A stretch of 64,000 nt of DNA, from assembly GCA_944392665.1 (NCBI GenBank), contig CALXXJ010000003.1, forward strand, positions 3,797-67,796, written 5' to 3'. How positions within the stretch are numbered: the stretch's first letter is position 1; each line of letters begins with the position of its first letter. Origin of the DNA: an uncultured Clostridia bacterium. Its GTDB lineage: Bacteria > Bacillota > Clostridia > TANB77 > CAG-508. Of this stretch, positions 20,637-63,322 are shown in pieces. The notes beneath the pieces were generated by a model. It ran no database searches, was not told where the DNA came from, and saw only the letters and a list, made by a program, of their open reading frames with translations. A program made the position numbers and the translations under genes.

Positions 20637-20686
20637 GGGATTTTGGGGACGGACTCAAATTTCCCTTTTTTCTTTTGCGAACATTT

Positions 20687-20718
20687 TGTCCTTTTGGGGA
20701 CGTTTCTGTTTGGGACAT
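20687..20718 (+). repeat. REP-like palindromic repeat, copy A (TGTCCTTTTGGGGACGTTTCTGTTTGGGACAT)
   Basis: Exact 32-mer. The flanking TTTTGGGGACGG at 20641-20652 is a partial extra copy. Confidence 0.75.
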
Positions 20719-20875
20719 TTTTATATAAAATTAATTTTAGAAAAGTAAATGTATTAAATTTTATTTATTCTGCAACGCATGCTAAGTAAAACAAATAAAA
20801 TTGAATATATTTACTTTGTTTTTTTGTTGTAAGTGAAAAAAACGTCCAAATGGAAACGTCCCCAATTGTCCCAAA

Positions 20876-20908
20876 ATGTCCCAAACAGAAACGTCCCCAA
20901 AAGGACAT
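20876..20908 (-). repeat. REP-like repeat, copy B (inverted relative to A); fragments precede it at 20840-20875
   Basis: ATGTCCCAAACAGAAACGTCCCCAAAAGGACAT is the reverse complement of the consensus. AAACGTCCAAATGG and GAAACGTCCCCAATTGTCCCAAA are partial copies. Confidence 0.75.
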
Positions 20909-20950
20909 AATTTTTGTTTTTCTTAATATCATTTAAAAAGGTGATATTTT

Positions 20951-25056: not shown

Positions 25057-25793
25057 ACACAACCTATTTATATGATGGTACATTTGATGGATTATTAACC
25101 ATTGTTTTTGAGAGCTATTCTCATAAAACATTACCACAAAAAATTGTTTCAGAGGAGGAATATACACAAAATTTTTTAGATAAAACACAATATATAAATA
25201 CCAATTATGAAAAGGCAAAACGTGTTTTTGAAGGAATCAACAAAAATATTTGCTATGAAGCTTTATATAATAGTTTTTATGCTTTTTTATCAGATGGAAA
25301 AGAAAAAGAAATTAAAATTTTAAAATATTTATGTGATGGGTTTGACATTGGTCCTAAAATTAACACCATGCTTACTATTTCTTATGTCTTTTCTGTTATT
25401 AATATGAGAAAAAGAGCTTTATCAGAATGCCATAAGTTAAAAGGATTGCTTCGATTTATGGAAATTGGAGAAAATCTATATTATGCTTCTATTCATCCAG
25501 ATAATAATATCATAGAACCTTTAGGACATCACTTTATTAGAAGGCTACCTACACAAAACTTTATCATACACGATAAAAATAGAAATATTTGTTTTTTATA
25601 CAATACACAAGAATACAAAATTATTGATAGTACTAATTTAACAATTCCTGATATTACTGAAGAAGAACAAAAATATCAAGAACTTTGGAAACTATTTTTC
25701 AAAACCATTGCCATACAAGAAAGAAAAAATACTAGATGTCAAATACAGTTTATGCCTAAAAAATATTGGCAAGATTTAATTGAAGAACCATAA
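25035..25793 (+). CDS. TIGR03915/DUF4130-family putative DNA-metabolism protein, partner of the radical SAM protein
   Basis: 252 aa, overlapping the upstream gene by 22 nt (translational coupling). This is the canonical pair arrangement. Confidence 0.6.
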   Translation: MSNWKLVNTTYLYDGTFDGLLTIVFESYSHKTLPQKIVSEEEYTQNFLDKTQYINTNYEKAKRVFEGINKNICYEALYNSFYAFLSDGKEKEIKILKYLCDGFDIGPKINTMLTISYVFSVINMRKRALSECHKLKGLLRFMEIGENLYYASIHPDNNIIEPLGHHFIRRLPTQNFIIHDKNRNICFLYNTQEYKIIDSTNLTIPDITEEEQKYQELWKLFFKTIAIQERKNTRCQIQFMPKKYWQDLIEEP

Positions 25794-25795
25794 AA

Positions 25796-25824
25796 TTGCC
25801 AAAGGGGACATGCCATTTTGGCAA
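25796..25824 (+). repeat. hairpin repeat family 2 (TTGCCAAAGGGGACATGCCATTTTGGCAA), terminator for the radical-SAM pair
   Basis: Self-complementary 9-bp stem followed by CTTTTC. Confidence 0.6.
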
Positions 25825-25911
25825 CTTTTCTTAAATAAGTTTTAAGTCAATCAGAAATTTATAAAATTTTAAATTTTTGATTGACTTTTATTAATTGATT
25901 AAAATTAAGGG

Positions 25912-25940
25912 TTGCCAAAATGGCACGTCCCCTTTGGCAA
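25912..25940 (-). repeat. hairpin repeat family 2, inverted copy (TTGCCAAAATGGCACGTCCCCTTTGGCAA), abutting the permease stop
   Basis: Reverse complement of the 25796 copy with one mismatch. Another palindrome (AGTCAATCAGAAATTT..AAATTTTTGATTGACT) is nested between the copies. Confidence 0.6.
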
Positions 25941-25943
25941 CTT

Positions 25944-28535
25944 TTAAATATTTTCTTTTCTAATGGTTTCAATAATATTCTGATTTTTAGTTTTCTTAAC
26001 AGCATATCGCATCGTCATAAAGATAATGGCAAATACAAATATAATAGAAATCAAAATTGGTATTATAGGAAGTTCATAATCTGTTGTATAGACATCTGCT
26101 GTAACTGTATAGATTAGATAAGATAATGCAACACCTACTGGCAATCCAAATATAAGTGCTTTTAAGCCATATATAAAACTTTCATAATGAATCATTCTCT
26201 TAAATTCTTTGTTTGTCATACCTATAGATTTTAATATGGCAAATTCTCTATTTCTAAGTGCCATATTAGTAGTTATCGTATTAAATATATTAGTTACACC
26301 AATAACGCTAATCACAGCTATAAATCCATATATAAATATCGATACAATTAGATTCATATTTCTTGCTGCTCTTACATCCTCTTCTGTATTATAAATATTA
26401 TCTTGATTGGTTTTATCAATTTCTACAATTTCTTCTTGTAATTTATATGGATCTTCTGCATTTATATGCATAGCAACAACATTATGTTCAAAGTTTTCCA
26501 TCATTTCATCTGAGATAATAATAATCGGATGTGTATCTTCTTGAAAAGATAGGCCTAATGGATATTTATCTGCTCTTTTAGCAATTTTAATACTTCCTTT
26601 TTCTGTTAAATTTCCTTCTTCATCTTGCATTTTATAATATTCTAATGTATCTCCCGCATTTAAATTCGTTAGATTTGTTTCTACTCGTTTGACACCATCT
26701 CTTCCCTCTTCATATTCATATAAAATTCTTGTATCAGAAAGAATTGCTTCATCTTTTACTTCATCATAATTTAATCCTAATTCTGCTACATAATTTCTAT
26801 AAGCTTCATCACCAAGTGAATAAATAATAAGTATGGTATTCACTTCTTCTGAATAATATTCTAATGCTTCCTCTGTATATATATCAGGATTATCCATATG
26901 TACATATGTATCTTTTAAAATCATATATTCTTTGATTCCATCTAAATTTTTAATCTTATCAAAATAGGCTTCTGTATCTTCTTCATATTGATTACTATAT
27001 ACTGTTAAATTAATCCTAGATTCTTGATACTCTAAAGAAGATACTCCAAATACACTTTCTGCAAAGGCATTCATAGAGATAAATAAGACAATACTTAGAA
27101 ATATGGAAAATATAGTTGTTCTATATCTTTTTCTACTTCTTCTAAAATTCTTTCTGGCAATCACACCTTCTATTCCAAATAATTTTTTCGTTAGTTTATA
27201 TTCCTTATGTTTATGCTTATTCTTTTTTACTTTTACATCTGAACTTTCTCTTATGGCATCAATTGGTGAAATTTTTCCTGCTCGATAACTTGGTCTAATT
27301 AGTGAGATGATAATCATAACAATGGATACAATGATTGCAACGATAATTGCTCCCCATGATATGGTTAACTGTAATTCAAAATTATCAATTAATGGTGTAC
27401 TTCCTGAATTGATAATTCCATTAACAATTGCTAACACGATTCCTATTGCTACAATTCCTATCACAATTCCTAATGGTATAGAAATTAGACCTAATACAGC
27501 ACCTTCAAAAAGGATACTTTTTCTAATTTGTTTTGCCGTTGCTCCTACACTTGCTATCATTCCTAATTCTCTTGTTTTTTCTGTAAGAGATATACTAAAA
27601 CTATTCTTGATAACAAAGGCAGAAGTGAAAACAATAATACCAATTACAATCACTAACATAGTTATCACAAAAGTTTCTACTCTATCACTTTTGAAAATTC
27701 CCATGTAATATAATAAATCTTGGTTTTCAGAAATATTTGTCTCGTCAATTTGTAAATCATTTTTCAAATAATCTTCAAAGTCATATACTTCTGTTGGATC
27801 TTTTAATATAATAGACATATTTACATTTCTGGTATCATCAATCTTGTCTAATTTTGTTATCATGGTATACCCTGGAGCAGAATAACTCTCACTATTTAAT
27901 CGTTCCATGATACCTACAATTGTATATGTTTTTTTGGTACTTGCAACAAATGTTTCTTGTTCTAAATCATCTTCAATTCCACTTTCTTTTCTATCTAATC
28001 TATCTTGGTCTGTATAATATGGATTGGTTTGATTTAATATATATTCTCCTTTATATCGATTACCAATATCAAATTCTATGGTATCACCAACATTCCACTC
28101 TACTTTTCCATTTTGAATAACATGTTCTGGTATCACAATCTCATTTTCATTTTCTGGTAATCTTCCTTCTAATAAAACAATTCCTCCATTTTGCAAAAGT
28201 TTTTCATCATATCCTTCAATATAGGCATAAGGTTTGTTTTCATTTTGAGATTCTTCTAATGGTGCATATCCAATCTCTTGTGATATTTGTAATTCCTCTA
28301 TTTTTGCATTATTCTCCAAATATTTTTCATTTTCTTTTGATACATCTTGTATACGAATATGATAATTTCCATTTGTTTTAATTTCTCTTTCTAGCATTGT
28401 TTTTTGAATACTAACTGTAAATGTAGTGATTGCACATATTAAAGCAACAGAAAGAGAAATTCCAATAATGGTAACAATGGTTCTTTTTTTATTCAATTTT
28501 AAATTTTTCAGTGTCAATGTATTTAAAATTTTCAT
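25944..28535 (-). CDS. FtsX-family ABC transporter permease (BceB/MacB-like) with a large extracytoplasmic domain
   Basis: 863 aa with N- and C-terminal FtsX 4-TM bundles flanking a large extracytoplasmic domain. Confidence 0.8.
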   Translation of the reverse strand: MKILNTLTLKNLKLNKKRTIVTIIGISLSVALICAITTFTVSIQKTMLEREIKTNGNYHIRIQDVSKENEKYLENNAKIEELQISQEIGYAPLEESQNENKPYAYIEGYDEKLLQNGGIVLLEGRLPENENEIVIPEHVIQNGKVEWNVGDTIEFDIGNRYKGEYILNQTNPYYTDQDRLDRKESGIEDDLEQETFVASTKKTYTIVGIMERLNSESYSAPGYTMITKLDKIDDTRNVNMSIILKDPTEVYDFEDYLKNDLQIDETNISENQDLLYYMGIFKSDRVETFVITMLVIVIGIIVFTSAFVIKNSFSISLTEKTRELGMIASVGATAKQIRKSILFEGAVLGLISIPLGIVIGIVAIGIVLAIVNGIINSGSTPLIDNFELQLTISWGAIIVAIIVSIVMIIISLIRPSYRAGKISPIDAIRESSDVKVKKNKHKHKEYKLTKKLFGIEGVIARKNFRRSRKRYRTTIFSIFLSIVLFISMNAFAESVFGVSSLEYQESRINLTVYSNQYEEDTEAYFDKIKNLDGIKEYMILKDTYVHMDNPDIYTEEALEYYSEEVNTILIIYSLGDEAYRNYVAELGLNYDEVKDEAILSDTRILYEYEEGRDGVKRVETNLTNLNAGDTLEYYKMQDEEGNLTEKGSIKIAKRADKYPLGLSFQEDTHPIIIISDEMMENFEHNVVAMHINAEDPYKLQEEIVEIDKTNQDNIYNTEEDVRAARNMNLIVSIFIYGFIAVISVIGVTNIFNTITTNMALRNREFAILKSIGMTNKEFKRMIHYESFIYGLKALIFGLPVGVALSYLIYTVTADVYTTDYELPIIPILISIIFVFAIIFMTMRYAVKKTKNQNIIETIRKENI

Positions 28536-30806: not shown

Positions 30807-30838
30807 TGTCCTTTTGGGGACGTTTCTGTTTGGGACAT
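30807..30838 (+). repeat. REP-like repeat, copy C, in the response regulator-to-kinase spacer
   Basis: Exact 32-mer. A partial duplication (TGTCCTTTTG...GTTTCTG) lies just upstream at 30786-30806. Confidence 0.75.
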
Positions 30839-30923: not shown

Positions 30924-31602
30924 CTATCGTTCAATCTTGTAACCTAATCCTCTGACTGTTTTAATAATTTCTGGTTTATTAGGATCGTTTTCTATTTTTT
31001 CTCGAATTCTTTTAATATATACTGTTAAGGTATTATCGTTTACGAAGTTTTCTTCATTATCCCAGATATAAGATAATATTTGCTCTCTTGTTATAATTTT
31101 TCCTCTGTTTTCAAATAGCATTACTAAAATCTTGTATTCTAATGCTGTTAATTCTAATTCTTGGTTATCTTTTAATACTTTTCCGTGTTGTATAATTGAT
31201 TTCTACATTTTTAATTTTTATTGTTTCTTCTTTTTCTTTCTTTACATTATGTCTTAATACATTTTTTATCCTAGATAATAATTCTCCTGCATGAAATGGT
31301 TTGGTAATATAATCATCTGCTCCTAAGTCAAATCCTTTTACTATATCTTTTTCTTCATCTAATGCTGTTAAAAATATAGTCGGAATTTCTTGTATGTTTT
31401 TCATTTTTTGATATAAATCATATCCTGTACCATCTGGTAAATTAATATCTAACAACATTAAGTCATAATCATTGTTTTCGATTTTTTCAATACCTTCTTT
31501 TACAGTTTTTGCTGTATGAATAACAAATCCCTCTGATTGTAAATAATAAGAAACGGTATTTGATATATTTTTATCATCTTCTATTAATAATATTTTTAAC
31601 AT
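30924..31602 (-). pseudogene. OmpR-family response regulator, frameshifted in a homopolymer (T4 at 31179-31182)
   Basis: The receiver domain (31165..31602) and the winged-helix domain (30924..31121) are in different frames. Removing one A from GAAAAG restores ..NYTTRKVLKDNQELELTALEYKILVMLFENRG.. Confidence 0.7.
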
Positions 31603-42722: not shown

Positions 42723-43145
42723 TTAAACAATTGCAAAAGTTAATTCACCTTTTACTGCTACTTTTCCATCAACAGTTGCTAATGCTTCTCCTATTCCGAT
42801 AGGTCCTTTTCTTTTTATGATTTTTACTTCTAATTTTAATCTATCTCCAGGAACCACTTGTCTTTTAAATCTTAATTTGTCGATTCCACCAAATAAAGCA
42901 TTTCTTCCTTTATTTTCTTCCATAGAAAGAATGGCAACTGCACCAGTTTGTGCTAAAGATTCTACAATTAAAACTCCTGGCATAATTGGATTTCCAGGAA
43001 AATGGCCTTTAAAATAATATTCATCTTCACTAACATTTTTATATGCTACTGCACTTTCTCCTGGTACATATTCTTCTACTTCATCTATCATTAAAAATGG
43101 TTCTCTTTGTGGTATAATTTCTTTAATTTGTTCTTTATTTAACAT
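42723..43145 (-). CDS. fabZ: 3-hydroxyacyl-ACP dehydratase
   Basis: 140 aa with the hotdog fold and a catalytic His ([13 protein letters not shown]). Confidence 0.9.
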
Positions 43146-43251
43146 TTTAATTATATCCTTTCTTCACTTTTAAATTACTATCAATCTTCATTCTTTTAAG
43201 TTAAATTCTTTTATCAATATTTTTTTAAATTCTAAATCTATTTAAAACAAA

Positions 43252-43284
43252 ATGTCCCAAACAGAAACGTCCCCAAAAGGACAT
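43252..43284 (-). repeat. REP-like repeat, copy D, abutting the accB stop codon
   Basis: ATGTCCCAAACAGAAACGTCCCCAAAAGGACAT. It generates the spurious ORF 43252..43482. Confidence 0.75.
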
Positions 43285-43748
43285 TATTTAATTTTAAATA
43301 ATGGTGTACCATATTCTACAACATCTTCATTTTTTACACAAATTTCTACAACTTCACCATCAAATTCTGATTCGATTTCGTTCATTAATTTCATTGCTTC
43401 TACAATACATACAACTTGTCCTTTTGAAATTTTATCTCCAACTTTTACATATGGATCTTTATCTGGTGATGAACTTGCATAAAAAGTACCTACCATTGGT
43501 GATTTAATAACTTTATAGTTTTCTTCTTTTTTATCTTCTACTGCAACTATTCCTTTTTCTTCTTGTGGTCTTACAGCAGGAACAGACATTGGCGCACTTG
43601 CTTCTATAACGTGTGGCTCTAGGATAACTTCTCTTTTTTCACTTTTTTTCATACTGATTTTTACACCGTCTGGAAATTCAATTTCTAATTCTTCTAATTT
43701 TGAATTTCCCATATCGTCCATTAATTTTTTAATTTCCTTATAATCCAT
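43285..43748 (-). CDS. accB: biotin carboxyl carrier protein
   Basis: Biotinyl-lysine motif EAMKLMN. 154 aa. Confidence 0.85.
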
Positions 43749-44072
43749 ATTTCTACCTCCGTTTTTATTTTTATTTTATACTATTTTTTGAAATTTGAAA
43801 AGTAGCAAATATAAAAATATTATAAAATAAACTTTTGCAAGGATGATGATATTTTAGATTGAATAAATTTTGAATGTGATTGGAGATATCTTAGAATTTG
43901 TTAATCATATATTGAGGGATGTTCACGGTACTCACATAGTGAGGGTCTGAGTGAAAGAGGCTCAATATATGATGTTACAAATTCTTAAATATCGTATTGA
44001 ACCGAAAAATTTATAAAATCTAAAATAACATCATCCTAATTCAATTTATACTTTCAAAATGATAAAATGTTT

Positions 44073-45314
44073 CTATTCTTCATATTTCTTTAATAAAATA
44101 CTACTATTGTGTCCTCCAAATCCTAATGAATTAGACATTGCATATTTTACATCTACTTTTCTTCCTTCATTTGGAACCACATCTAAATCACATTCTTCAT
44201 CTGGGACTTTATAATTAATAGTTGCTGGAACAAATCCTTCTTCGATTGCTTTTGCACAGACAATGGCTTCTACTCCTCCTGCTGCACCTAATAAATGTCC
44301 TGTATGACCTTTTGTTGAACTTACCATTACTTTTTTAGCTGCTTCTTCTCCTAATGCTGTTTTTATTGCTTGTGTCTCATATGAATCATTTAAATGTGTT
44401 GATGTACCATGTGCATTAATATAAGTAATTTCTTCTGGATTTACTTTTGCTTCTTCTATAGCAATTTTCATAGCTCTTGCACCGCCTTCTCCTCCTGGAG
44501 CAGGTGATGTGATATGATATGCATCAGATGTTGCACCATATCCGACGATTTCAGCATAAATTTTAGCACCTCTTTTTTTCGCATGCTCTAGTTCTTCTAA
44601 AACAATAACACCAGCACCTTCTCCCATAACAAAGCCACTTCTCTCTTTGTCAAATGGAATACTTGCTCTTGTTTTATCTTCAGATTTTGTTAAAGCTTTT
44701 ATATTTGCAAATCCTGCTATTCCAAGTGGCGTTATTCCTGCTTCTGTTCCTCCTGCTAATACAACATCTTGATATCCATGTTTAATCATTCTGAAACTTT
44801 CTCCAATACTATGTGTCCCTGTAGCACATGCTGTAACCATAGCTATAGATTCTCCTTTTGCTCCAATATCAATTGCTACATTTCCTGTTGCCATATTAGA
44901 AATTCCCATAGGAATATACATTGGTGAAACTCTATCTGGTCCTTTTGACATACATTTTTCATGTTCTGTTTCGATTGTTTGTATTCCTCCAATTCCTGAT
45001 CCTATAATAATTCCTACTCTTTCCATATTTTCATTTTCTTTATCTAGTCCACTATCTTTCCAAGCTTCTCTAGCAGCTATCATTGCATATTGAGAAAATT
45101 TATCTAATCTTTTTGCTTCTCTTTTATCAAAATAATCTTCTGGATTGTATTCTTTCAATTCAGCTGCTAATTTTACTTTAAAGTCTGTTACATCAAAACT
45201 CTTTATTACGTCAACTCCACATTTACCTTCTTTGATTCCTTTCCAAAAGTCATTTGCATTATTTCCTATTGGAGTTACAGCTCCTAATCCTGTAATAACA
45301 ACTCTTCTTTCCAT
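44073..45314 (-). CDS. fabF: 3-oxoacyl-ACP synthase II
   Basis: 413 aa with the KAS II active-site Cys region and the HGTSTxxND and GHxxGAAG motifs. Confidence 0.9.
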   Translation of the reverse strand: MERRVVITGLGAVTPIGNNANDFWKGIKEGKCGVDVIKSFDVTDFKVKLAAELKEYNPEDYFDKREAKRLDKFSQYAMIAAREAWKDSGLDKENENMERVGIIIGSGIGGIQTIETEHEKCMSKGPDRVSPMYIPMGISNMATGNVAIDIGAKGESIAMVTACATGTHSIGESFRMIKHGYQDVVLAGGTEAGITPLGIAGFANIKALTKSEDKTRASIPFDKERSGFVMGEGAGVIVLEELEHAKKRGAKIYAEIVGYGATSDAYHITSPAPGGEGGARAMKIAIEEAKVNPEEITYINAHGTSTHLNDSYETQAIKTALGEEAAKKVMVSSTKGHTGHLLGAAGGVEAIVCAKAIEEGFVPATINYKVPDEECDLDVVPNEGRKVDVKYAMSNSLGFGGHNSSILLKKYEE

Positions 45315-45504
45315 CTTTCTCTTCCTTTCATTTTTTCATACTACTATTATTATTTCACATATATTATATTATTTTAAAACAAATTCAAAGTAGTATATTG
45401 TGCATTTTTGATGTCAACTTCAAGCTGAAGGCATACTTTTTGTATGTCAAAGTTTGAAGTTGATATCGAAAATGTGCAAGATGCTGCTTTCAATTTATTT
45501 TTTA

Positions 45505-45560
45505 TTGTATAGGAAAAATCTGCTTTTATCTTGACCCTATATGGATTTTTCCGTATACAA
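45505..45560 (+). repeat. repeat family 3, copy 2, in the fabG-fabF spacer
   Basis: TTGTATAGGAAAAATCTGCTTTTATCTTGACCCTATATGGATTTTTCCGTATACAA. Confidence 0.6.
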
Positions 45561-45631
45561 CAAGGTTAAGCTTCTTATATTCGTGAAGTACTGCGAAGCA
45601 GTCTTCACATTTGTGCGTCGAAACGCCTTTC

Positions 45632-46372
45632 TTACATGACCATTCCACCATCTATATTGATTACTTGGCCAGTGATATAAGCACTTTCATCTGATCCTAA
45701 GAAATAGATTAAATTTGCTACCTCTTTTGCTGTTCCCATTCTCTTCAATGGAATTTGGTTATGTATATTTTCTTTTATTTCGTCTGATAACACAGCAGTC
45801 ATATCTGTCTCTATAAATCCAGGTGCTACTGCATTTGCTCTAATATTTCTTGAAGCTAATTCTTTTGCTACACTTTTTGTAAATCCAATAATTCCAGCTT
45901 TTGATGCTGCATAATTACATTGTCCAGCATTTCCTGCAACACCTACAACTGATGATAAATTAATAATACTTCCTTTTCTTTTTTTCATCATATATTTTGT
46001 AACTGCTTTTGTGACAATATATGTTCCTTTTAAATTCACTTCTATTACTTTATCAAATTCTTCTTCACTCATTCTCATTAATAAGTTATCTTTGTTAATA
46101 CCTGCATTATTAACTAATACATCTATACTTCCAAATTCTTCAATTGCTTTTTTCACCAATTCTTCAATTGCTTCTTTATCTGTTACATCTGCTTGCATAA
46201 TAAGTGCCTTTACACCTTTATTTTCAAATTCAGCTTTTAATTCTTCTACATTTGTTTTACTTGAAACATAGTTAATGACAACATTATATCCATTGTCTGC
46301 AAATTTTAAAGCTACTTCTTTTCCAATTCCTCTTGAAGCGCCTGTTACAAATACAGTTTTATTTTCTTCCAT
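45632..46372 (-). CDS. fabG: 3-oxoacyl-ACP reductase
   Basis: SDR Rossmann motif TGASRGIGK and catalytic YxxxK. 246 aa. Confidence 0.9.
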   Translation of the reverse strand: MEENKTVFVTGASRGIGKEVALKFADNGYNVVINYVSSKTNVEELKAEFENKGVKALIMQADVTDKEAIEELVKKAIEEFGSIDVLVNNAGINKDNLLMRMSEEEFDKVIEVNLKGTYIVTKAVTKYMMKKRKGSIINLSSVVGVAGNAGQCNYAASKAGIIGFTKSVAKELASRNIRANAVAPGFIETDMTAVLSDEIKENIHNQIPLKRMGTAKEVANLIYFLGSDESAYITGQVINIDGGMVM

Positions 46373-46374
46373 CT

Positions 46375-47310
46375 TTATTCATTCCCTTCTAAAAATTTCT
46401 CTAAACTATCCACATTATTTATATTAAATGTCTTGGCTTCTTTATTATCTTTCTTTACAAATCCTGTTAAAGTTCTTCCTGGTCCAATTTCCAAATATTC
46501 CTCTACTTGCTCTTGTTCCATTAATTTGATTGCTTTATCAAATCTTACTGGACTAATAATATGATTTGCTAAAATTTCTTTTATATTATCATTTTCAGTA
46601 TAATATGTACCATCAATATTTTTTATAACTTTAACCTTTGTATCAAGATTAAAATCAATATTTACTAATTCTTTCTCATATGCTTCTTTTGCTTTTTCTA
46701 GTTTTATTGTATGGAATGGCCCACTTGTATTTAATTTTAAAGCTCTTTTTGCTCCTTGTGCTTTTAATACTTCCATTGCTTCATCAATGGCATCTTCTTG
46801 TCCTGATATAACTGTTTGCACACTGCAATTATAATTAGCAACTACAATAAATTTATTATTGTTTGAAATTTCTTTACAAACTTCTTCTATTTTTTCTGAA
46901 TCTAATCCAATAATCGCTGCCATCGAAAATTTCTCATCTGGTAAAAGATTTCCCATGTAATAACCTCTTTTTTGAATTAGATTTATTCCATCTTCAAAAC
47001 TGATGATTCCAGCATAGATTAAAGCACCATATTCTCCTAAACTCAATCCTGTTGCAATATCTGCTTCTATTCCTTTTGATTTTAAAACTTCTAATATTGC
47101 TAAACTTGTTGTTAGTATAGCAATTTGTGTGTTTTCTGTTTTATTTAACTCTTCTTCTGGACCTTCAAAACAAAGTTTTTTTACATCAATTCCAGATATT
47201 CTTGAAGCCTCATCATAAATCTTTTTTGCTTCATCATATTTTTCATAAATATCTTTTCCCATTCCTACAACTTGTGCGCCTTGTCCTGGAAATAAAAATG
47301 CTCTTTTCAT
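46375..47310 (-). CDS. fabD: malonyl-CoA:ACP transacylase
   Basis: GQGAQ motif and a GLSLGEY active-site Ser. 311 aa. Confidence 0.9.
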   Translation of the reverse strand: MKRAFLFPGQGAQVVGMGKDIYEKYDEAKKIYDEASRISGIDVKKLCFEGPEEELNKTENTQIAILTTSLAILEVLKSKGIEADIATGLSLGEYGALIYAGIISFEDGINLIQKRGYYMGNLLPDEKFSMAAIIGLDSEKIEEVCKEISNNNKFIVVANYNCSVQTVISGQEDAIDEAMEVLKAQGAKRALKLNTSGPFHTIKLEKAKEAYEKELVNIDFNLDTKVKVIKNIDGTYYTENDNIKEILANHIISPVRFDKAIKLMEQEQVEEYLEIGPGRTLTGFVKKDNKEAKTFNINNVDSLEKFLEGNE

Positions 47311-47332
47311 TCTTTCTTCATCCTTTCTTTTT

Positions 47333-47362
47333 TGTCCATTAGGGACGTTTCCTTTTGGACAT
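47333..47362 (+). repeat. REP-like repeat, variant copy E (TGTCCATTAGGGACGTTTCCTTTTGGACAT)
   Basis: A variant of the consensus. It forms a perfect 30-bp inverted pair with 47434-47463. Confidence 0.7.
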
Positions 47363-47433
47363 TTTATATGAATTTATAATCGTAAAATGTTATATAAATA
47401 TTTTTTATTAAAAATGAATGTGTTTTACAAAAA

Positions 47434-47463
47434 ATGTCCAAAAGGAAACGTCCCTAATGGACA
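47434..47463 (-). repeat. REP-like repeat, variant copy F, the exact reverse complement of copy E, abutting the fabH stop
   Basis: ATGTCCAAAAGGAAACGTCCCTAATGGACA. Confidence 0.7.
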
Positions 47464-47464
47464 A

Positions 47465-48400
47465 TTATATTTCCATCAAAATACTTCCTGTGTTTAATCC
47501 TCCACCATATCCTAATAGAATAATTTTATCACCTGTTCTTAAAAGTCCGCTTTTTTGCATATCATATAAAGCAATTGGTATACTGGCACAAAAGGTATTT
47601 CCTCTTTCCTGTATATTTGTATACATCTTTTCCATTTGTATATGGAGTCTTGATGCAATTGCTTTCATAATTTTTAAGTTTGACTGATGTGCTACTATAT
47701 ATTTTACATCATGTAATGATATATTCGCTTTTTCTAGTAACTCATTTATATTTTCAACTGTTTTGGTAACTGCATATTTGTATACTTCTTTTCCGTTCAT
47801 ATATACGTTTTGTCCATATCGATATATTAAAATATTATTTTTGTCTTCCTCAGCTTTAATATTAGATATATACATTTTTGGATGAGTGGTTATTTCTTCT
47901 TTTTCTATTAGTGTTGCTCCTGCACCATCAGATAAAACAACAGCTGTTCCTATATCTTTTTTATCAACAATTTCAGATAATTTATCTACACCAATAATTA
48001 AAGCTCTTTTTATATTTCGTGAATCTATATATGTTTTTGCAATATCAAATGCATTTATATATCCTCCACATCCAGCTAATATATCGAAACATATACATGG
48101 AAAGAGGTTTAATTTCTTTTGCACATAATTTGATATTCCTGGCATTAACATATCTGTACTTGTTGTTGCTGCTATAATAAGGTCGATATCTTGTTTATCT
48201 TCTTCTGAAGAAATCAGTATCTTTACTGCCTCTACTGCCATATCTTGTATAGTCTCATCGATTGCATAATATCTATTTTTTATTCCTGTTCTTTTTTCAA
48301 TGTATCCATTTTCTAAATTTAATATTTTTTCTAATTCATTATTTTCAATTTGTTTTTCAGGAAAATATATTCCATTGCCTACTATACGTATATTGCTCAC
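47465..48400 (-). CDS. fabH: 3-oxoacyl-ACP synthase III
   Basis: 311 aa with a KAS III fold and an active-site Cys (AGCGGY). Confidence 0.9.
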   Translation of the reverse strand: MSNIRIVGNGIYFPEKQIENNELEKILNLENGYIEKRTGIKNRYYAIDETIQDMAVEAVKILISSEEDKQDIDLIIAATTSTDMLMPGISNYVQKKLNLFPCICFDILAGCGGYINAFDIAKTYIDSRNIKRALIIGVDKLSEIVDKKDIGTAVVLSDGAGATLIEKEEITTHPKMYISNIKAEEDKNNILIYRYGQNVYMNGKEVYKYAVTKTVENINELLEKANISLHDVKYIVAHQSNLKIMKAIASRLHIQMEKMYTNIQERGNTFCASIPIALYDMQKSGLLRTGDKIILLGYGGGLNTGSILMEI

Positions 48401-52928: not shown

Positions 52929-52961
52929 ATGTCCCAAACAGAAACGTCCCCAAAAGGACAT
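52929..52961 (-). repeat. REP-like repeat, copy G, abutting the stop of the 52963..54315 gene
   Basis: ATGTCCCAAACAGAAACGTCCCCAAAAGGACAT. Confidence 0.75.
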
Positions 52962-52962
52962 T

Positions 52963-54315
52963 TTATACTTTTGCTAATAACAATCCTATATTCATAAATA
53001 AATTGCTGAAAATTCCTCTAATTTCCTCAATTATATTTTGTGGTTCTGTATAAACTTCTAACTCATAAGCATATTCAAAATTTGATTTCTTGGCAGGCTT
53101 TAATGTATATATTTCATTTGGTAACCCTACATATCCATTTGATGTATATATTTCTTTATTCATATAATCTTTATACCACTCTCTTTGTCCTATTAAATAT
53201 TCATTCTCATACCCGTATTCTTTATAATCATGTAATGCAGGTACTGTATATCCATATTCTTTTGCTGTTCTTTCCAATGAATGTAGAAATTCATGTAAAA
53301 ATACTTCTTCTGGAAATTGATTTACACTCGTATCATATTTATATATATAACTTTTTGAACTATTTGGTAATCGAATATTGGAAAATCCAATTCCATAATA
53401 ATCCATAGATCCTAAACCTATCCAATCTTTGATTTCTATATCATCTTCATATTCTTCATTTCCTAGTCTTACAACAATGAAAATATGGTCATAATTATTT
53501 TTATTAATGATATCTTTAATTTGTTCCTCTATATCTTCTGGCGCAACATAATAACCAAATTCATCATCATATGATAAAGAAGTGATTGGTTCTTGTATTT
53601 CATATATATCACAATCTGCTGTCATTTTTCCATCTGATAACTGATTACAAGAATTTTCAAATCGTTCTATTGTATTTTTTATATCTTCTATATCTGTATT
53701 TGTTACTTGTATATCAATTTGCTTATTATCTACTACAACATTTGTATTTTCAAAGATAAAGCAAGCAAAATTCCAATCACTATCTTCTTCAGTTTGTCCT
53801 TTTTCTATTTTAAAATCGGAAAACCAAACTTCTCCTTTTGCATATCCTTCTGTTCCTCCTAATCGAAAAACAATGTCTACCATTTCTCTATTTTTCGAAT
53901 TAAATATAAATTCTACTTGTTGCCAATCACTATCTCCATTAATTGCTACAGATCTTTCTACTGTGTTAGAAATAGAAATTTGTGCCCCTATGCTAGAAAC
54001 ATTCTTATCTGCTTCTACACCTTTTGTTTTTATCATGCAAGTTACTTTATATGGTGTATTTTTTTCTACTTCTATTTCTTTTGAAAACATCGCATCATTA
54101 AATTCATTTGATGTTATTTTATAACTATTGCTATCAGAATATTTTACTGTTTTATCTCTTTTGAATTCTGATATATTTAATTTAGCTTCACTTCGTATAA
54201 AACCATTAAAATTATTACTTTGATAGAATTGATATGCGAAATATATAGCAATCATTAAAATGACAAAAGTAAATATATTTATGATTAATCCTTTTGCACT
54301 TTCATTTTTTCTCAT
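52963..54315 (-). CDS. hypothetical membrane-anchored protein with a C-terminal HExxH motif
   Basis: 450 aa with an N-terminal TM helix and HEFLHSLE. No family call. Confidence 0.4.
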   Translation of the reverse strand: MRKNESAKGLIINIFTFVILMIAIYFAYQFYQSNNFNGFIRSEAKLNISEFKRDKTVKYSDSNSYKITSNEFNDAMFSKEIEVEKNTPYKVTCMIKTKGVEADKNVSSIGAQISISNTVERSVAINGDSDWQQVEFIFNSKNREMVDIVFRLGGTEGYAKGEVWFSDFKIEKGQTEEDSDWNFACFIFENTNVVVDNKQIDIQVTNTDIEDIKNTIERFENSCNQLSDGKMTADCDIYEIQEPITSLSYDDEFGYYVAPEDIEEQIKDIINKNNYDHIFIVVRLGNEEYEDDIEIKDWIGLGSMDYYGIGFSNIRLPNSSKSYIYKYDTSVNQFPEEVFLHEFLHSLERTAKEYGYTVPALHDYKEYGYENEYLIGQREWYKDYMNKEIYTSNGYVGLPNEIYTLKPAKKSNFEYAYELEVYTEPQNIIEEIRGIFSNLFMNIGLLLAKV

Positions 54316-60610: not shown

Positions 60611-60725
60611 TTAGATTAATATAAATAAAATAAATGAAATTAAAAATGCTATGAGCAACAAATATATAGTAAAAATACAAATTAGAAAACATAACACTAA
60701 ATTTTATAAAATATGGAGGTATCAA

Positions 60726-61475
60726 ATGTTAAACGTATTCGTAAATGGTTGTAATGGAAAAATGGGAAATGTGGTATGTAGTTTAGTAGAAGAAAATGAA
60801 AATATGCAAGTCATTGGTGGATTTGACAAAGTAAGTTATTCTGATTCTAAATTCCCAATTTTTACAGAAGTAGAAAATATTGATGTAAAACCAGATGTCA
60901 TCATTGACTTTTCACTTCCTGTTGCAACACTAAATATATTAAATTATGCAAAAACAAATAAAATACCAATGGTTATTGCCACAACTGGATTTACAGATGA
61001 AGAAACAAAAATAATTGAAGAAGCAAGTAAAACAATTCCTATCTTTAAATCTGCTAATATGTCCTTTGACATTATGCTTATGAAAAAAGTTGTTTCTTGG
61101 CTTGCACCACTTTTAAAAAATACAGATATTGAAATTATTGAAGCACATCATAATAGAAAAGTGGATAGTCCAAGTGGTACTGCCCAAATGTTAGCAGATA
61201 GTATTAATGAATCTTTAGGAAATACGCTTCATTGCGAATATAACAGACATGATAAACATGAAAAAAGAGATAAAAACGAAATTGGTATGTCTTCTATCAG
61301 AGGTGGAAATATTGTTGGTGAGCATTCTGTTCAATTTATTGGCAATTTTGAAACTTTCGAAATTAAGCATACCAGCTATTCTAGAAATGTATTTGCAGAA
61401 GGTGCTTTAAGAGCTGCTGAATTTATTGCCAGCCAACAGCCTGGTATGTATGCTATGGAAGATATGTCCTTTTAG
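60726..61475 (+). CDS. dapB: 4-hydroxy-tetrahydrodipicolinate reductase
   Basis: Start MLNVFVNGCNGKMG with a GGAGG RBS and EAHHNRKVDSPSGTA. The stop codon TAG (61473-61475) lies inside REP copy H. Confidence 0.9.
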   Translation: MLNVFVNGCNGKMGNVVCSLVEENENMQVIGGFDKVSYSDSKFPIFTEVENIDVKPDVIIDFSLPVATLNILNYAKTNKIPMVIATTGFTDEETKIIEEASKTIPIFKSANMSFDIMLMKKVVSWLAPLLKNTDIEIIEAHHNRKVDSPSGTAQMLADSINESLGNTLHCEYNRHDKHEKRDKNEIGMSSIRGGNIVGEHSVQFIGNFETFEIKHTSYSRNVFAEGALRAAEFIASQQPGMYAMEDMSF

Positions 61476-61496
61476 GGATGTTTCTGTTTGGGACAT
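61465..61496 (+). repeat. REP-like repeat, copy H (two substitutions), overlapping the last 4 codons and stop of dapB
   Basis: TGTCCTTTTAGGGATGTTTCTGTTTGGGACAT. Confidence 0.7.
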
Positions 61497-61525
61497 TTTT
61501 ATGTTAATCATCTGTATTAAGTTAA

Positions 61526-61567
61526 AACCAGAAAATCTTTTTACAAGATTTTCTGGTTGATATTTTT
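61526..61567. terminator. bidirectional terminator (AACCAGAAAATCTTT-tac-AAGATTTTCTGGTT plus T-run) between dapB and the convergent membrane-protein gene
   Basis: 14-bp stem followed by GATATTTTTTT. Confidence 0.65.
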
Positions 61568-61580
61568 TTACCTTTATTTT

Positions 61581-62222
61581 TTAAATTATATTTGTCATTA
61601 CATAATATATTCCCCAACAAACTGCTATAAGGATAACAATAATAAATAATATTAAGATTAAAGTTATAATTTTTTCTTTTATCGTTCCTTTACTTTTCTT
61701 AAAAAATATAATACTACCTACAATAAAAATAATAAAAAATAATGATATAGGTAATATATATGTTTTTACCATTTTCCATATTGATTCTATAAATGTTGGT
61801 TCATTTACTACTTCTGGCGAATCATATAATTCTACAAACTCACCAGGTTCACTCGAATCAATAGCTGTAACTATCTTTTCAGGTATCATCACATAATATC
61901 TTACCAATCCGATTGATACAAGAATAACAATACTAAAAAATATTAAGATTAAGGTTGTAATTTTTTCTTTTATTGTTCTTTTGCTTTTCTTAAAAAATAT
62001 AATACTACCTATAATAAATGCAATAAAAAATAATGATATAGGTAATATATATGTTTTTACTATTTTCCATACTGATTCTATAAAAGTTGATTTGTCTATT
62101 ATGTTGGTTGATCTATTTAATACTTCTGGTGGACCATACAGAGAAGCTCTCGCAGCTACTTTTTCATGTAGCAACATTATTGAAATTGCAACTGATATAA
62201 ACATTTTTTTAATTTTTTTCAT
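61581..62222 (-). CDS. secreted/membrane protein built from two tandemly duplicated ~95-aa two-TM modules
   Basis: A signal peptide, then two modules: PEVLN..TFIESVWKIVKTYILPISLFFIAFIIGSIIFFKKSKRTIKEKITTLILIFF.. and PEVVNEPTFIESIWKMVKTYILPISLFFIIFIVGSIIFFKKSKGTIKEKIITLILILF... The nucleotide repeat is about 290 bp at more than 90% identity. Confidence 0.5.
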   Translation of the reverse strand: MKKIKKMFISVAISIMLLHEKVAARASLYGPPEVLNRSTNIIDKSTFIESVWKIVKTYILPISLFFIAFIIGSIIFFKKSKRTIKEKITTLILIFFSIVILVSIGLVRYYVMIPEKIVTAIDSSEPGEFVELYDSPEVVNEPTFIESIWKMVKTYILPISLFFIIFIVGSIIFFKKSKGTIKEKIITLILILFIIVILIAVCWGIYYVMTNII

Positions 62223-62233
62223 TTGGTATCCCC

Positions 62234-63322
62234 CTATTTTCCATACATCATCTTATATGGACATTTATTTTGTTCATTATTCTCAAAATCCCAAGTATGA
62301 TATGCTCCTCCTAAACAATATTCCCAATATTCACACTTTTCACATGTATCACTTTTAGTTCTATCTTTACTTCTAAATTCTTTATATTTATTATCCCATA
62401 CATCTTTAAAATTATCTGTTCTAATATTTCCTTGTATTAATCTCTTTATCCTAGGAACATTCGGACATACAAATAAATCACCATTGTATAAAATACTGGC
62501 AACATTGATTCCTGTTCTACAATAAAAGTAATATTTTCTGACCTCTTTTTCATAATCTAATCCTAAAAATCCTGGACAACCATATGTCAATTCTAATTTT
62601 TTATTGTGCTTTTTAGATTTTATAAAGTCTAATAATCTTTTGATTTCTTTACCATCTAATAACAAATCATTATTTTCATTTGCTCTTCCAATGGGATCCA
62701 TAGAAGCTAATCTCCAAGAATCTAATCCTAAGCCTAGCATAACTTGATATAATTCTTCCATTTGGTTTATATTTCCTTTATGAAATACAGTTGTTACTTG
62801 TATATGTTTTACAAATCCTGCTTGTTTTAGTTTTTTTATATTCTCAATGATTGTTTGATAAGAATTTGGGACTCCTCTAAATTTATCATGTGTTTCTTCT
62901 AAGCCATCAATACTAATAGATATAGTTTCCATATTTGCTTTTTTTAATTTTTGAATATTTTCCTCAGTTAATAATATTCCGTTTGTTGTCATTCCCCAAT
63001 GAAATCCCAACTCATTTGTTGCATATTCCATAACTTCGCATAAATCTTTTCTAACTAATGGCTCTCCACCAGTCACATTAATTAATATCTTACTTGCATC
63101 CATATCATTTGCAATTTGTTGAAATGCATTTTTTATCTCTTCTGTTATTAATTCCCCATCATATTTTTTCTTTTCAGCACTACTCCCACAATGCTTACAA
63201 TTTGCATTACAAGTTAATGTGCATTCCCAAAATAAATCTATTAATTCATGATTTTTCCTGTCTTGTTCTTTATACTTTTGCATTAAGTATAATTCACCTA
63301 GTTTATATATTTCCTTAAACAT
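62234..63322 (-). CDS. radical SAM/SPASM-domain protein (peptide/protein-modifying maturase-like)
   Basis: CTLTCNANCKHC (Cx3Cx2C) and a C-terminal Cys-rich SPASM region (CEKCEYWEYCLGG...CPY). The start is placed at the ATG with an AAGGTG RBS. The ORF-track start at 63331 is a GTG. Confidence 0.7.
   Translation of the reverse strand: MFKEIYKLGELYLMQKYKEQDRKNHELIDLFWECTLTCNANCKHCGSSAEKKKYDGELITEEIKNAFQQIANDMDASKILINVTGGEPLVRKDLCEVMEYATNELGFHWGMTTNGILLTEENIQKLKKANMETISISIDGLEETHDKFRGVPNSYQTIIENIKKLKQAGFVKHIQVTTVFHKGNINQMEELYQVMLGLGLDSWRLASMDPIGRANENNDLLLDGKEIKRLLDFIKSKKHNKKLELTYGCPGFLGLDYEKEVRKYYFYCRTGINVASILYNGDLFVCPNVPRIKRLIQGNIRTDNFKDVWDNKYKEFRSKDRTKSDTCEKCEYWEYCLGGAYHTWDFENNEQNKCPYKMMYGK

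Follow-up and report, generated by a model that had tools for sequence, protein, structure and literature searches.

Between fabH and fabD, two genes of the fatty-acid synthesis (fab) cluster of an uncultured Clostridia bacterium (contig CALXXJ010000003.1, of which a stretch of 64,000 nucleotides, hereafter the window, was analyzed), lies a perfect inverted repeat that fills most of the intergenic region. Its presence inside an essential operon raises the question of whether it regulates the genes around it, marks a site of termination or RNA processing, or is a repeat that the operon tolerates. Based on the anatomy of the element, on related units elsewhere in the window and on the state of the same junction in related species, the best reading is that it represents an ordinary kind of genomic repeat and not a dedicated fatty-acid regulator. 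Specifically, it is proposed with a probability of roughly 0.65 that the fabH-fabD element is a tolerated insertion of a head-to-head doublet of hairpin units resembling repetitive extragenic palindromes (REPs), with a layout like that of REPINs (pairs of REPs that fold into a hairpin) and bacterial interspersed mosaic elements (BIMEs), and that it belongs to a family distributed clade-wide in uncultured low-GC gut Clostridia.

The fabH-fabD junction in the window and in related species

The fab genes are encoded on the minus strand, a point not stated in the preliminary description of this DNA, and fabH and fabD are separated by 154 nt (47311-47464), 133 of which are taken up by the palindrome. 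Its arm, TGTCCATTAGGGACGTTTCCTTTTGGACAT, occurs in exactly two copies in the window, in opposite orientations and with zero mismatches (Table 1), and the match was recovered in 0 of 100 dinucleotide shuffles. The exact reverse-complement pair with a 71-nt spacer that had been described initially is therefore confirmed, and the pairing extends beyond the 30-nt arms to 34 uninterrupted base pairs (47332-47365 with 47431-47464), leaving a loop of 65 nt. The doublet indeed abuts the fabH stop codon, beginning 1 nt past the TAA.

Folding of the element, which had been suggested as a check, yields a strong hairpin: the sense-strand RNA reaches -58.1 kcal/mol compared with -24.8 +/- 3.4 kcal/mol in shuffled sequences (z = -9.9), and the palindrome region folded as single-stranded DNA gives -42 kcal/mol (z = -13). 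The arms also fold individually. The sense arm, which is followed by T6 (U6 in the transcript), forms an outer stem UGUCCA/UGGACA and an apical stem AGGGA-CGU-UUCCU with an energy of -13.9 kcal/mol, as compared with -10.5 kcal/mol for the antisense arm. A terminator consensus scan flagged only the 5-bp inner hairpin, and the sequence after the complete 34-bp hairpin is AAAAAGAAAGG, A-rich and not composed of U. No sigma-70-like promoter was predicted by a consensus scan in either orientation of the 71-nt spacer.

The interpretation of the doublet as an insertion was supported by a one-genome-per-species scan that returned 80 loci, all from metagenome-assembled genomes (MAGs) of uncultured gut Clostridia (chicken, rabbit, human, and other hosts), with FabD identities of 67-98% to the window, in 69 of which the fabH-fabD junction could be extracted. 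The spacer measures 35 nt or less in 18 junctions, some type of REP unit is present in another 18, and the remaining 33 are longer and lack the core sequence of the family, several of them carrying unrelated small elements. The element is thus not shared by all relatives, a possibility raised in the preliminary description. The most direct comparison is provided by two species with 95-96% FabD identity (L012 and L016), in which a spacer of 17 nt joins the same stop codon and ribosome-binding site as in the window. The empty site reads ...GAAATATAA, then GAAAGGATGAAGAAAGA and ATG, and the filled site ...GAAATATAA, then T, the palindrome and AAAAA, followed by GAAAGGATGAAGAAAGA and ATG. The entire 17-nt spacer of L012 and L016 is identical to the last 17 nt before the fabD start in the window, and the DNA added at the filled site amounts to 137 bp, including a few flanking A/T. 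It had initially been expected that this position would normally hold acpP or fabK or be very short; neither gene occupies it in this clade, in which the ancestral state is a very short spacer.

Other alleles of the junction show decay and loss. A species with 95% FabD identity (L021) also has this variant at the junction; 5 of 31 positions are changed in one arm, the other arm is shortened, and the spacer is visibly different. Two further species (L027 and L033) contain at this junction a different doublet with 43-nt arms, within a spacer of 183-187 nt, and the 33-nt spacer of L031 holds only a 14-bp palindrome, TGTCCAATTGGACA, which fits a deletion between two 8-bp copies of CCAATTGG in arms of the L027/L033 type. 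The junction is occupied by a composite of ~330 bp in L011, L013, and L015, by an element of ~250 bp related to the fabF-accB element of the window in L014, L018, and L029, and by a 132-bp part of the window fabG-fabF spacer in L020. Altogether, the fabH-fabD junction is a turnover hot spot that has received at least five unrelated inserts across species.

Turnover was also evident in other spacers of the cluster, as within-species insertions or deletions of 132, 20, and 198 bp and one replacement were detected in the fabG-fabF, fabF-accB, and accB-fabZ spacers. The fabG-fabF spacer (45315-45631) shows presence/absence of 132-bp and 20-bp segments among conspecific contigs and contains a long imperfect hairpin (GCACATTTTCGATATCAACTTCAAACTTTGACATAC...). 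The fabF-accB spacer (43749-44072) includes a 198-bp element with inverted ends GGATGATGTTATTTTAGATTT...AAATCTAAAATATCATCATCC that is present in most conspecific contigs and missing in L005, and relatives of this element were also found in the accB-fabZ spacer of L016 and L029. The closest species representative, L011, resembles the window closely in FabD (98%), FabZ (100%), and Tgt (99%), but less so in FabF (92%) and in a 512-aa protein (81%), and its fabH-fabD spacer is completely different; this mosaic similarity suggests that close lineages have recombined around the junction.

The hairpin family and its genomic setting

The arms of the doublet were initially described as variant REP-type units in inverted orientation, and the repeat content of the window supports this assignment. 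The core GGGACGTTTCC, allowing one mismatch at most, is present in 8 copies in the window as compared with 0.09 expected, and in total 9 core-bearing units are distributed over 6 intergenic regions. The main-type unit is TGTCCTTTTGGGGACGTTTCTGTTTGGGACA followed by a T-run, with 5' ends at 20687 (+), 30807 (+), 61465 (+), 20907 (-), 43283 (-), and 52960 (-), and the fabH-fabD arms represent a second variant. Two doublets of the REP-like family and one of a related second type occur in the window. In the cluster located past the VanW-like gene the outer pair of units forms a 42-nt inverted repeat (20680-20721 with 20873-20914). The second-type doublet fills the gap between two convergent genes, encoding a DUF4130 protein (+) and an FtsX-type permease (-), each arm abutting the stop codon of its own gene. 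The antisense unit at 30807-30837 lies just upstream of the ribosome-binding site of the histidine-kinase gene; the neighboring response-regulator gene (30924-31602, -) is frameshifted, with the receiver ORF (open reading frame) at 31602..31165 and the winged-helix part in another frame at 31121..30924, and a repeat-like sequence, GGGACGTAC, is found 3' of the TAG of this split gene.

The same unit is widespread in the related species. In the window and the 80 related-species loci taken together (1.43 Mb), the 10-nt core GGGACGTTTC with one mismatch at most was detected 102 times, as compared with 21 times in shuffled sequence. The single unit is a hairpin of ~31 nt with an invariant apex, GGGA-CGU-UYCY (GGGACGTTYC in the DNA), closed by a CGU triloop and carried by stems that are specific to each lineage: the outer stems include TGTCC/GGACA, TGTCGC/GCGACA, TGTCTCA/TGAGACA, CGCA/TGCG, and GGGATTA/TAATCCC as well as TGAACTTTA/TAAAGTTCA and GAAACAAAA/TTTTGTTTC. 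The flanks vary between lineages yet stay complementary, the best Watson-Crick helix around the core averaging 5.53 bp as compared with 4.21 +/- 0.13 bp after random re-pairing of the 5' and 3' flanks. This partner-shuffle script was applied to the outer stem because RNAalifold, run on ungapped units, recovers only the apical stem, the internal loops being of unequal length. Units of some lineages fold over their full length as a perfect 16-bp hairpin. In an alignment of 44 units, two apical pairs vary between G-U and G-C (25/17 and 38/5) and no compensatory double changes were observed at these pairs; owing to the apical G-U pairs, one of the two strands forms the more stable hairpin. In 55-75% of the units the 3' stem is succeeded by a T-run. 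Doublets were also detected in seven of the related species (L027, L033, L039, L041, L046, L053, and L067).

The sequence of the units is maintained to a higher degree than that of their surroundings. Between the species L027 and L033 the arms of the doublet differ at 0 of 88 positions, whereas 72 of 505 four-fold sites (14.3%) have changed, and the Poisson probability of observing no change in the arms is ~5e-6. The spacer of this doublet is flipped between the two species (9811-9997 in L027 and 8285-8467 in L033), 64 of 76 positions matching as reverse complement and 45 in the same orientation; after reverse-complementing, 12 of 76 positions (16%) are changed. In the same line, the unit adjacent to accB is identical at 35 of 35 positions in the window, L011, L013, L019, and L088, with a synonymous divergence of up to ~20-25% in these comparisons and of only 3-20% in that with L011; outside the unit, the spacer of L013 and L019 cannot be aligned, and in L011 and L088 its 3' part can still be aligned. 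The window and L021 differ at ~25% of their four-fold sites, a divergence at which 30-nt arms evolving neutrally would not be expected to stay perfectly complementary. The units are therefore maintained, be it by selection or by homogenization from other copies, and the spacers drift and flip.

Conservation within the species is of a different value. At least 21 public contigs, from metagenomes or MAGs, encode a FabD sequence identical to that of the window; the junction was read in 10 of these places and in 10 places with identical FabG, 6 of the latter sharing a contig with a FabD place. All 20 conspecific places show the same 154-nt spacer in the same orientation, except for two differences in the loop spacer: a 1-nt deletion in the T-run, leaving U5, in one contig that was read twice (L003/L103), and one single-nucleotide polymorphism (L007). 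This identity by itself carries no evidential weight, as the adjoining 300 nt of fabH and all of fabD are virtually as invariant in these contigs.

Searches in other collections gave few matches. The exact variant arm was found in JGI metagenome contigs as two single copies, in other organisms and contexts (L091 and L092). A scan of IMG/VR for the unit gave five hits, located in contigs of 39% and 60% GC and without the hairpin; these are chance matches, and a link to phages was rejected. A search of the literature for the motif returned only unrelated papers, apparently by chance, and no description of the family. With Rfam 15 no known family was assigned to the element at the gathering score: with a threshold of E <= 1 the region matches only a plant miRNA precursor model (51 bits vs 140 for gathering), a generic effect of long hairpins. 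In the scan of the whole window only a T-box reached the gathering score (111 bits vs 93). This leader (38337-38564, -) lies upstream of the valyl-tRNA synthetase gene (38249..35583) and is ordinary. Elsewhere in the window, a gene encoding a D-alanyl-D-alanine carboxypeptidase (Peptidase_S11 and PBP5_C domains; 32486-33770, +) is split into two overlapping ORFs by a frameshift or a sequencing error.

The scores of the six fab-cluster genes exceed the curated NCBIfam cut-offs or come close to them (Table 1). The cluster has the order fabH-fabD-fabG-fabF-accB-fabZ (42723-48400) and is followed by a phosphofructokinase gene, fabH being placed between a gene that encodes a 512-aa protein with a Cu_amine_oxidN1 domain and fabD. 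Neither acpP nor genes for an enoyl reductase (fabK/fabI) or accA/C/D are present in the cluster, and a search for the DSL motif of the acyl carrier protein (ACP) found no ACP-like motif anywhere in the 64-kb window. No match to fabH was detected in the locus of six related species (L022, L088, L069, L071, L079, and L083), one of which, L088, still has a FabD 93% identical to that of the window.

Table 1. Position of the fabH-fabD element, the fab genes and the hairpin units in the window (genes on the minus strand are given from start to stop).
Feature	Position	Strand	Remarks
fabH (beta-ketoacyl-ACP synthase III)	48400..47465	-	GTG start; stop TAA 47465-47467; NCBIfam PRK09352 / NF006829, 286.6 bits vs cut-off 249
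Arm 1	47434..47463	-	REP-type unit, sense on fab mRNA
Spacer	47363..47433	-	71 nt, AT-rich; outermost 3 nt at each end still pair; no ORF
Arm 2	47333..47362	+	Antisense to fab mRNA; exact reverse complement of arm 1
Remnant before fabD ATG	47311..47331	-	21 nt, AAAAGAAAGGATGAAGAAAGA; holds the ribosome-binding site, Shine-Dalgarno-like AAAGGA
fabD (malonyl-CoA:ACP transacylase)	47310..46375	-	ATG start; TIGR00128, 301.5 bits vs cut-off 260.9
fabG	46372..45632	-	2 nt past fabD
fabF	45314..44073	-	Same fab cluster
accB	43748..43284	-	Stop 43284-43286
Main-type unit	43253..43283	-	Sense, directly past accB stop, within fab cluster; present in many relatives, absent in others
fabZ	43145..42723	-	Same fab cluster
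REP cluster past VanW-like gene	20687..20907		Main-type 20687-20717 (+), variant ~20842-20872 (-), main-type 20877-20907 (-)
Second-type doublet, TTGCCAAAGGGGACATGCCATTTTGGCAAC	25792..25944		34-nt arms, 85-nt spacer
Main-type unit	30807..30837	+	Antisense to flanking minus-strand response-regulator and histidine-kinase genes
Main-type unit	52930..52960	-	Sense, 2 nt past stop of 450-aa ORF 52963..54315 (upstream of queA)
Main-type unit, core GGGATGTTTC	61465..61495	+	Sense; overlaps stop of plus-strand ORF 60651..61475

Insertion, gene-end signal or switch

In the scenario proposed for the junction, an ancestor of the window species and the L021 species would have acquired the doublet by insertion at the exact point where the fabH stop codon gives way to the ribosome-binding site of fabD, and the element is now fixed in the window species. 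On the fab mRNA the sense arm, transcribed first, could fold alone and, with the U6 behind it, cause pausing or the termination of some transcripts while shielding the 3' end of fabH. Transcripts that read through would form the 34-bp duplex, which, with A-rich sequence after it, is not expected to act as a terminator. This duplex would loop the insert out and place the fabH stop ~22 nt from the fabD start, near the ancestral 17 nt, in such a way that fabD would still be expressed; the near-ancestral spacing may explain why the insertion was tolerated. A perfect 34-bp duplex would also be a natural substrate for a double-strand-specific RNase. Taking the hairpin fold, the U6 and the 34-bp duplex as a model of the RNA, polarity, attenuation or processing, as initially envisaged, are plausible effects. 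However, no promoter is predicted in the spacer, and fabD and fabG probably rely on read-through. This speaks against strong polarity, which cannot be complete if the two genes depend on the fabH transcript. The net effect is most likely near-neutral tolerance with, at most, modest attenuation.

Several points weigh against the reading of the element as a tolerated REP-like insertion. The steps at the RNA level are all inferred. Insertion in the window lineage, rather than precise deletion in L012 and L016, is the direction suggested by parsimony, and no target-site duplication is visible when the filled site of the window is compared with the two empty sites. Mobility of the type known from REPs and their REP-associated tyrosine transposases (RAYTs) is hypothetical: no transposase or recombinase domain was detected with Pfam and NCBIfam in 50 ORFs of the window (three ORFs at 60651-63331 were outside the scan), and a search for HUH and Y..NP motifs, by a crude regular expression, did not reveal any Y1/RAYT/IS200-like ORF in the window and the loci (1.5 Mb). 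Within the 64 kb the variant arm is found at this locus only, which leaves the multi-copy status of the 131-bp doublet unsupported. Finally, the conservation of the units across species, together with their placement at stop codons, argues that at least the single units are more than junk.

This last point relates to a serious rival, a gene-end signal selected by the host, which is compatible with a mobile origin of the repeat. The doublet would then serve as punctuation within the operon (a terminator or attenuator, or a stabilizer of the 3' end) and set the ratio of fabH to fabD-fabG, possibly depending on the melting of the hairpin by a ribosome at the stop codon; such a role is possible, although it is considered unlikely. 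The position of the units relative to genes speaks in its favor. For 48 of the 83 non-coding units the core begins -3 to +16 nt past a same-strand stop codon, most often at 9-10 nt, and the outer stem thus begins 0-5 nt past the stop codon or overlaps it; only 7.4% of random intergenic positions fall in the range from -3 to +16 nt. In the window alone this pattern was observed past fabH, accB, the 450-aa ORF and the ORF ending at 61475, and for both genes flanking the doublet at 25792-25944. With long ORFs as gene proxies, 61 units are sense and 19 antisense to both neighboring genes, most of the antisense ones being the second arm of a doublet. Moreover, the plus-strand GC skew is negative throughout the window, indicating a single replichore, in which plus genes are followed by plus units and minus genes by minus units, suggesting that orientation tracks transcription and not replication (the number of units is small). 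The apical G-U pairs that stabilize the sense strand only, as seen in the energies of the two arms, the T-run past the stem and the identity of units across species with 14-25% synonymous divergence point in the same direction. On the other hand, the sites counted are partly orthologous (past fabH, fabG, fabF, accB, and a few others), and the 48 cases are not independent events; many close relatives have no element of any kind at this junction, 18 of the 69 spacers being 35 nt or shorter; and the orthologous copy in L021 is decaying. In addition, a strong terminator before fabD-fabG-fabF would need a promoter downstream of it, and none is predicted.

A more general form of this idea, regarded here as doubtful, extends to the family as a whole, which may go beyond selfish DNA. 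Its hairpin could act in cis throughout the clade, be recognized by a protein dedicated to it and serve as a standard gene-end signal in the small AT-rich genomes of gut Clostridia, as a terminator or attenuator whose effect would depend on melting by a ribosome on the neighboring stop codon and which would be copied or homogenized between sites. If this reading were true, the doublet at the fabH-fabD junction would operate as a functional valve, sensitive to translation, between fabH and fabD-fabG.

It is improbable that the element is a classical miniature inverted-repeat transposable element (MITE), with the arms corresponding to the terminal inverted repeats of some DDE-type insertion sequence elsewhere in the genome and the single units to solo ends. 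The inverted ends of 30-43 nt, the AT-rich interior, the total length of 130-190 bp and the presence/absence between relatives are all compatible with a MITE, and other elements with terminal inverted repeats do occur in the same genomes, including the 198-bp fabF-accB insert that L005 lacks. Yet the arms, in spite of resembling terminal inverted repeats, are not accompanied by a target-site duplication, and no parent insertion sequence with matching ends was found in the window or the loci. The single units outnumber the doublets, and each is a hairpin with covarying stems, a feature unexpected for terminal repeats bound by a transposase; the strand and stop-codon bias of the single units is likewise at odds with this origin.

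The flipped spacer of L027 and L033 brings to mind an invertible, phase-variable switch, with the inverted repeats as recombination sites and a spacer carrying an orientation-dependent signal for fabD, and this flip is the observation in its favor. Such an inverton is very improbable, considering that one orientation was found in all conspecific places (assemblies report the majority orientation only), that neither orientation of the spacer contains a predicted promoter and that no recombinase domain was found among the scanned ORFs of the window. Besides, the sequence of the spacer is not conserved between species, and one flip over ~14% synonymous divergence is what would be expected from plain homologous recombination between 43-bp repeats. 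An operator for a FabT/FapR-type regulator of fatty-acid synthesis, suggested by the position in the fab cluster and the dyad symmetry only, is scarcely credible, since the repeat is not specific to the fab operon: it also stands behind unrelated genes, namely the VanW-like gene, the ORF that ends at 61475, the 450-aa ORF and the response-regulator/kinase pair, and close relatives lack it at the junction.

Returning to the tolerated REP-like doublet as the preferred reading, little changes for the fab finding itself: a repeat is tolerated in an essential operon, at a junction that is one of several fast-turnover spacers. Annotators of MAGs from gut Clostridia should expect such elements and should not take them for regulators or assembly errors. 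As a family, the units join three features that are rarely documented together, namely an apex shared across species with covarying stems, a bias toward the sense strand and stop codons, and conservation above that of synonymous sites. Alleles that are filled, empty, decayed, or scarred can be compared at identical sites in dozens of related genomes, and the family offers a convenient natural setting in which to ask whether REP-type repeats persist through a host function at gene ends or through their own spreading.

Relation to known repeat systems

The sense unit resembles an intrinsic terminator in that a hairpin of -13 to -18 kcal/mol precedes a U-run and often has an A-run in front of it. 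It differs in having an apex conserved across species and loci and an internal loop, neither of which a terminator needs; furthermore, the copies within one genome are identical, and the complete doublet hairpin is followed by A-rich and not U-rich sequence.

Inverted-repeat elements of the MITE type that are co-transcribed with genes and cut by RNase III are known in Neisseria (Correia elements) and in enterobacteria (ERIC/IRU), and Correia elements are further characterized by a TA target duplication, IHF sites and promoter parts. The fabH-fabD element is similar to these in size (~100-150 bp), in its inverted-repeat ends and in its location between co-transcribed genes, and by analogy its RNA duplex is a plausible substrate of RNase III. 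It is distinguished from Correia elements by the lack of a duplication at the junction and by arms that are independent hairpin units.

Intra-operon REPs of Escherichia coli are said, in the studies of Newbury et al. of 1987, Liang et al. of 2015 and Espeli et al. of 2001, to act as mRNA stabilizers of the malE-malF type, to lower the translation of the upstream gene when located within 15 nt of a stop codon and, when associated with BIMEs, to act in attenuation. The doublet shares with these REPs the placement of a hairpin repeat between cistrons, in the sense orientation and very close to the upstream stop codon, and by analogy protection of the 3' end, partial termination and an influence on the upstream gene might be expected. 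The sequences are unrelated.

REP super-families were surveyed by Di Nocera et al. (2013; PMC3733652), whose text does not mention Firmicutes or Clostridia. In the GTAG class the stem comprises 5-13 bp, and in the CGTC class 8-9 bp with a loop of 4-5 nt and a CCA tail, an unpaired tag being located at one end; REPs of the CGTC class, whose tag is sometimes TGTC, have no associated transposase, and in the super-families head-to-head dimers predominate (PMC3733652). The units described here are stem-loops as well, and many of them begin with TGTC and have CGTC on the opposite strand. Assignment to either super-family was nevertheless rejected, as the ends, TGTC...GACA in most lineages, are paired, the unit is built of two stems separated by an internal loop and capped by a CGU triloop, the CCA tail is missing, and lineages of Clostridia with other stems have no TGTC at all.

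The closest layout is that of the REPINs and of the REP-RAYT system, described in Pseudomonas fluorescens SBW25 and E. coli, in which doublets of REPs form a hairpin (Bertels and Rainey, 2011; PMC3116915). The family in Clostridia differs from these in that it has no conserved unpaired GTAG tag, in that it is invariant at the apex of the hairpin, which is kept across a family-level clade while the stems change, and in that the spacer of the fabH-fabD doublet is unpaired and the host belongs to a low-GC Firmicute lineage; moreover, no RAYT (a Y1/HUH transposase) was found in the window ORFs or the loci by a crude motif test. In other respects the likeness is close. As in REPINs and enterobacterial BIMEs, the unit is a multi-copy extragenic palindrome of a lineage-specific sequence type that occurs as singlets beside doublets, and for the family both the unit is multi-copy and the doublets are recurrent, with the exact variant doublet at one locus in the 64 kb. 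The arms are better conserved than the spacer, as observed between L027 and L033, and in the fabH-fabD element two inverted units with a short spacer form, as in a REPIN, one predicted hairpin with a 34-bp stem and a 65-nt loop.

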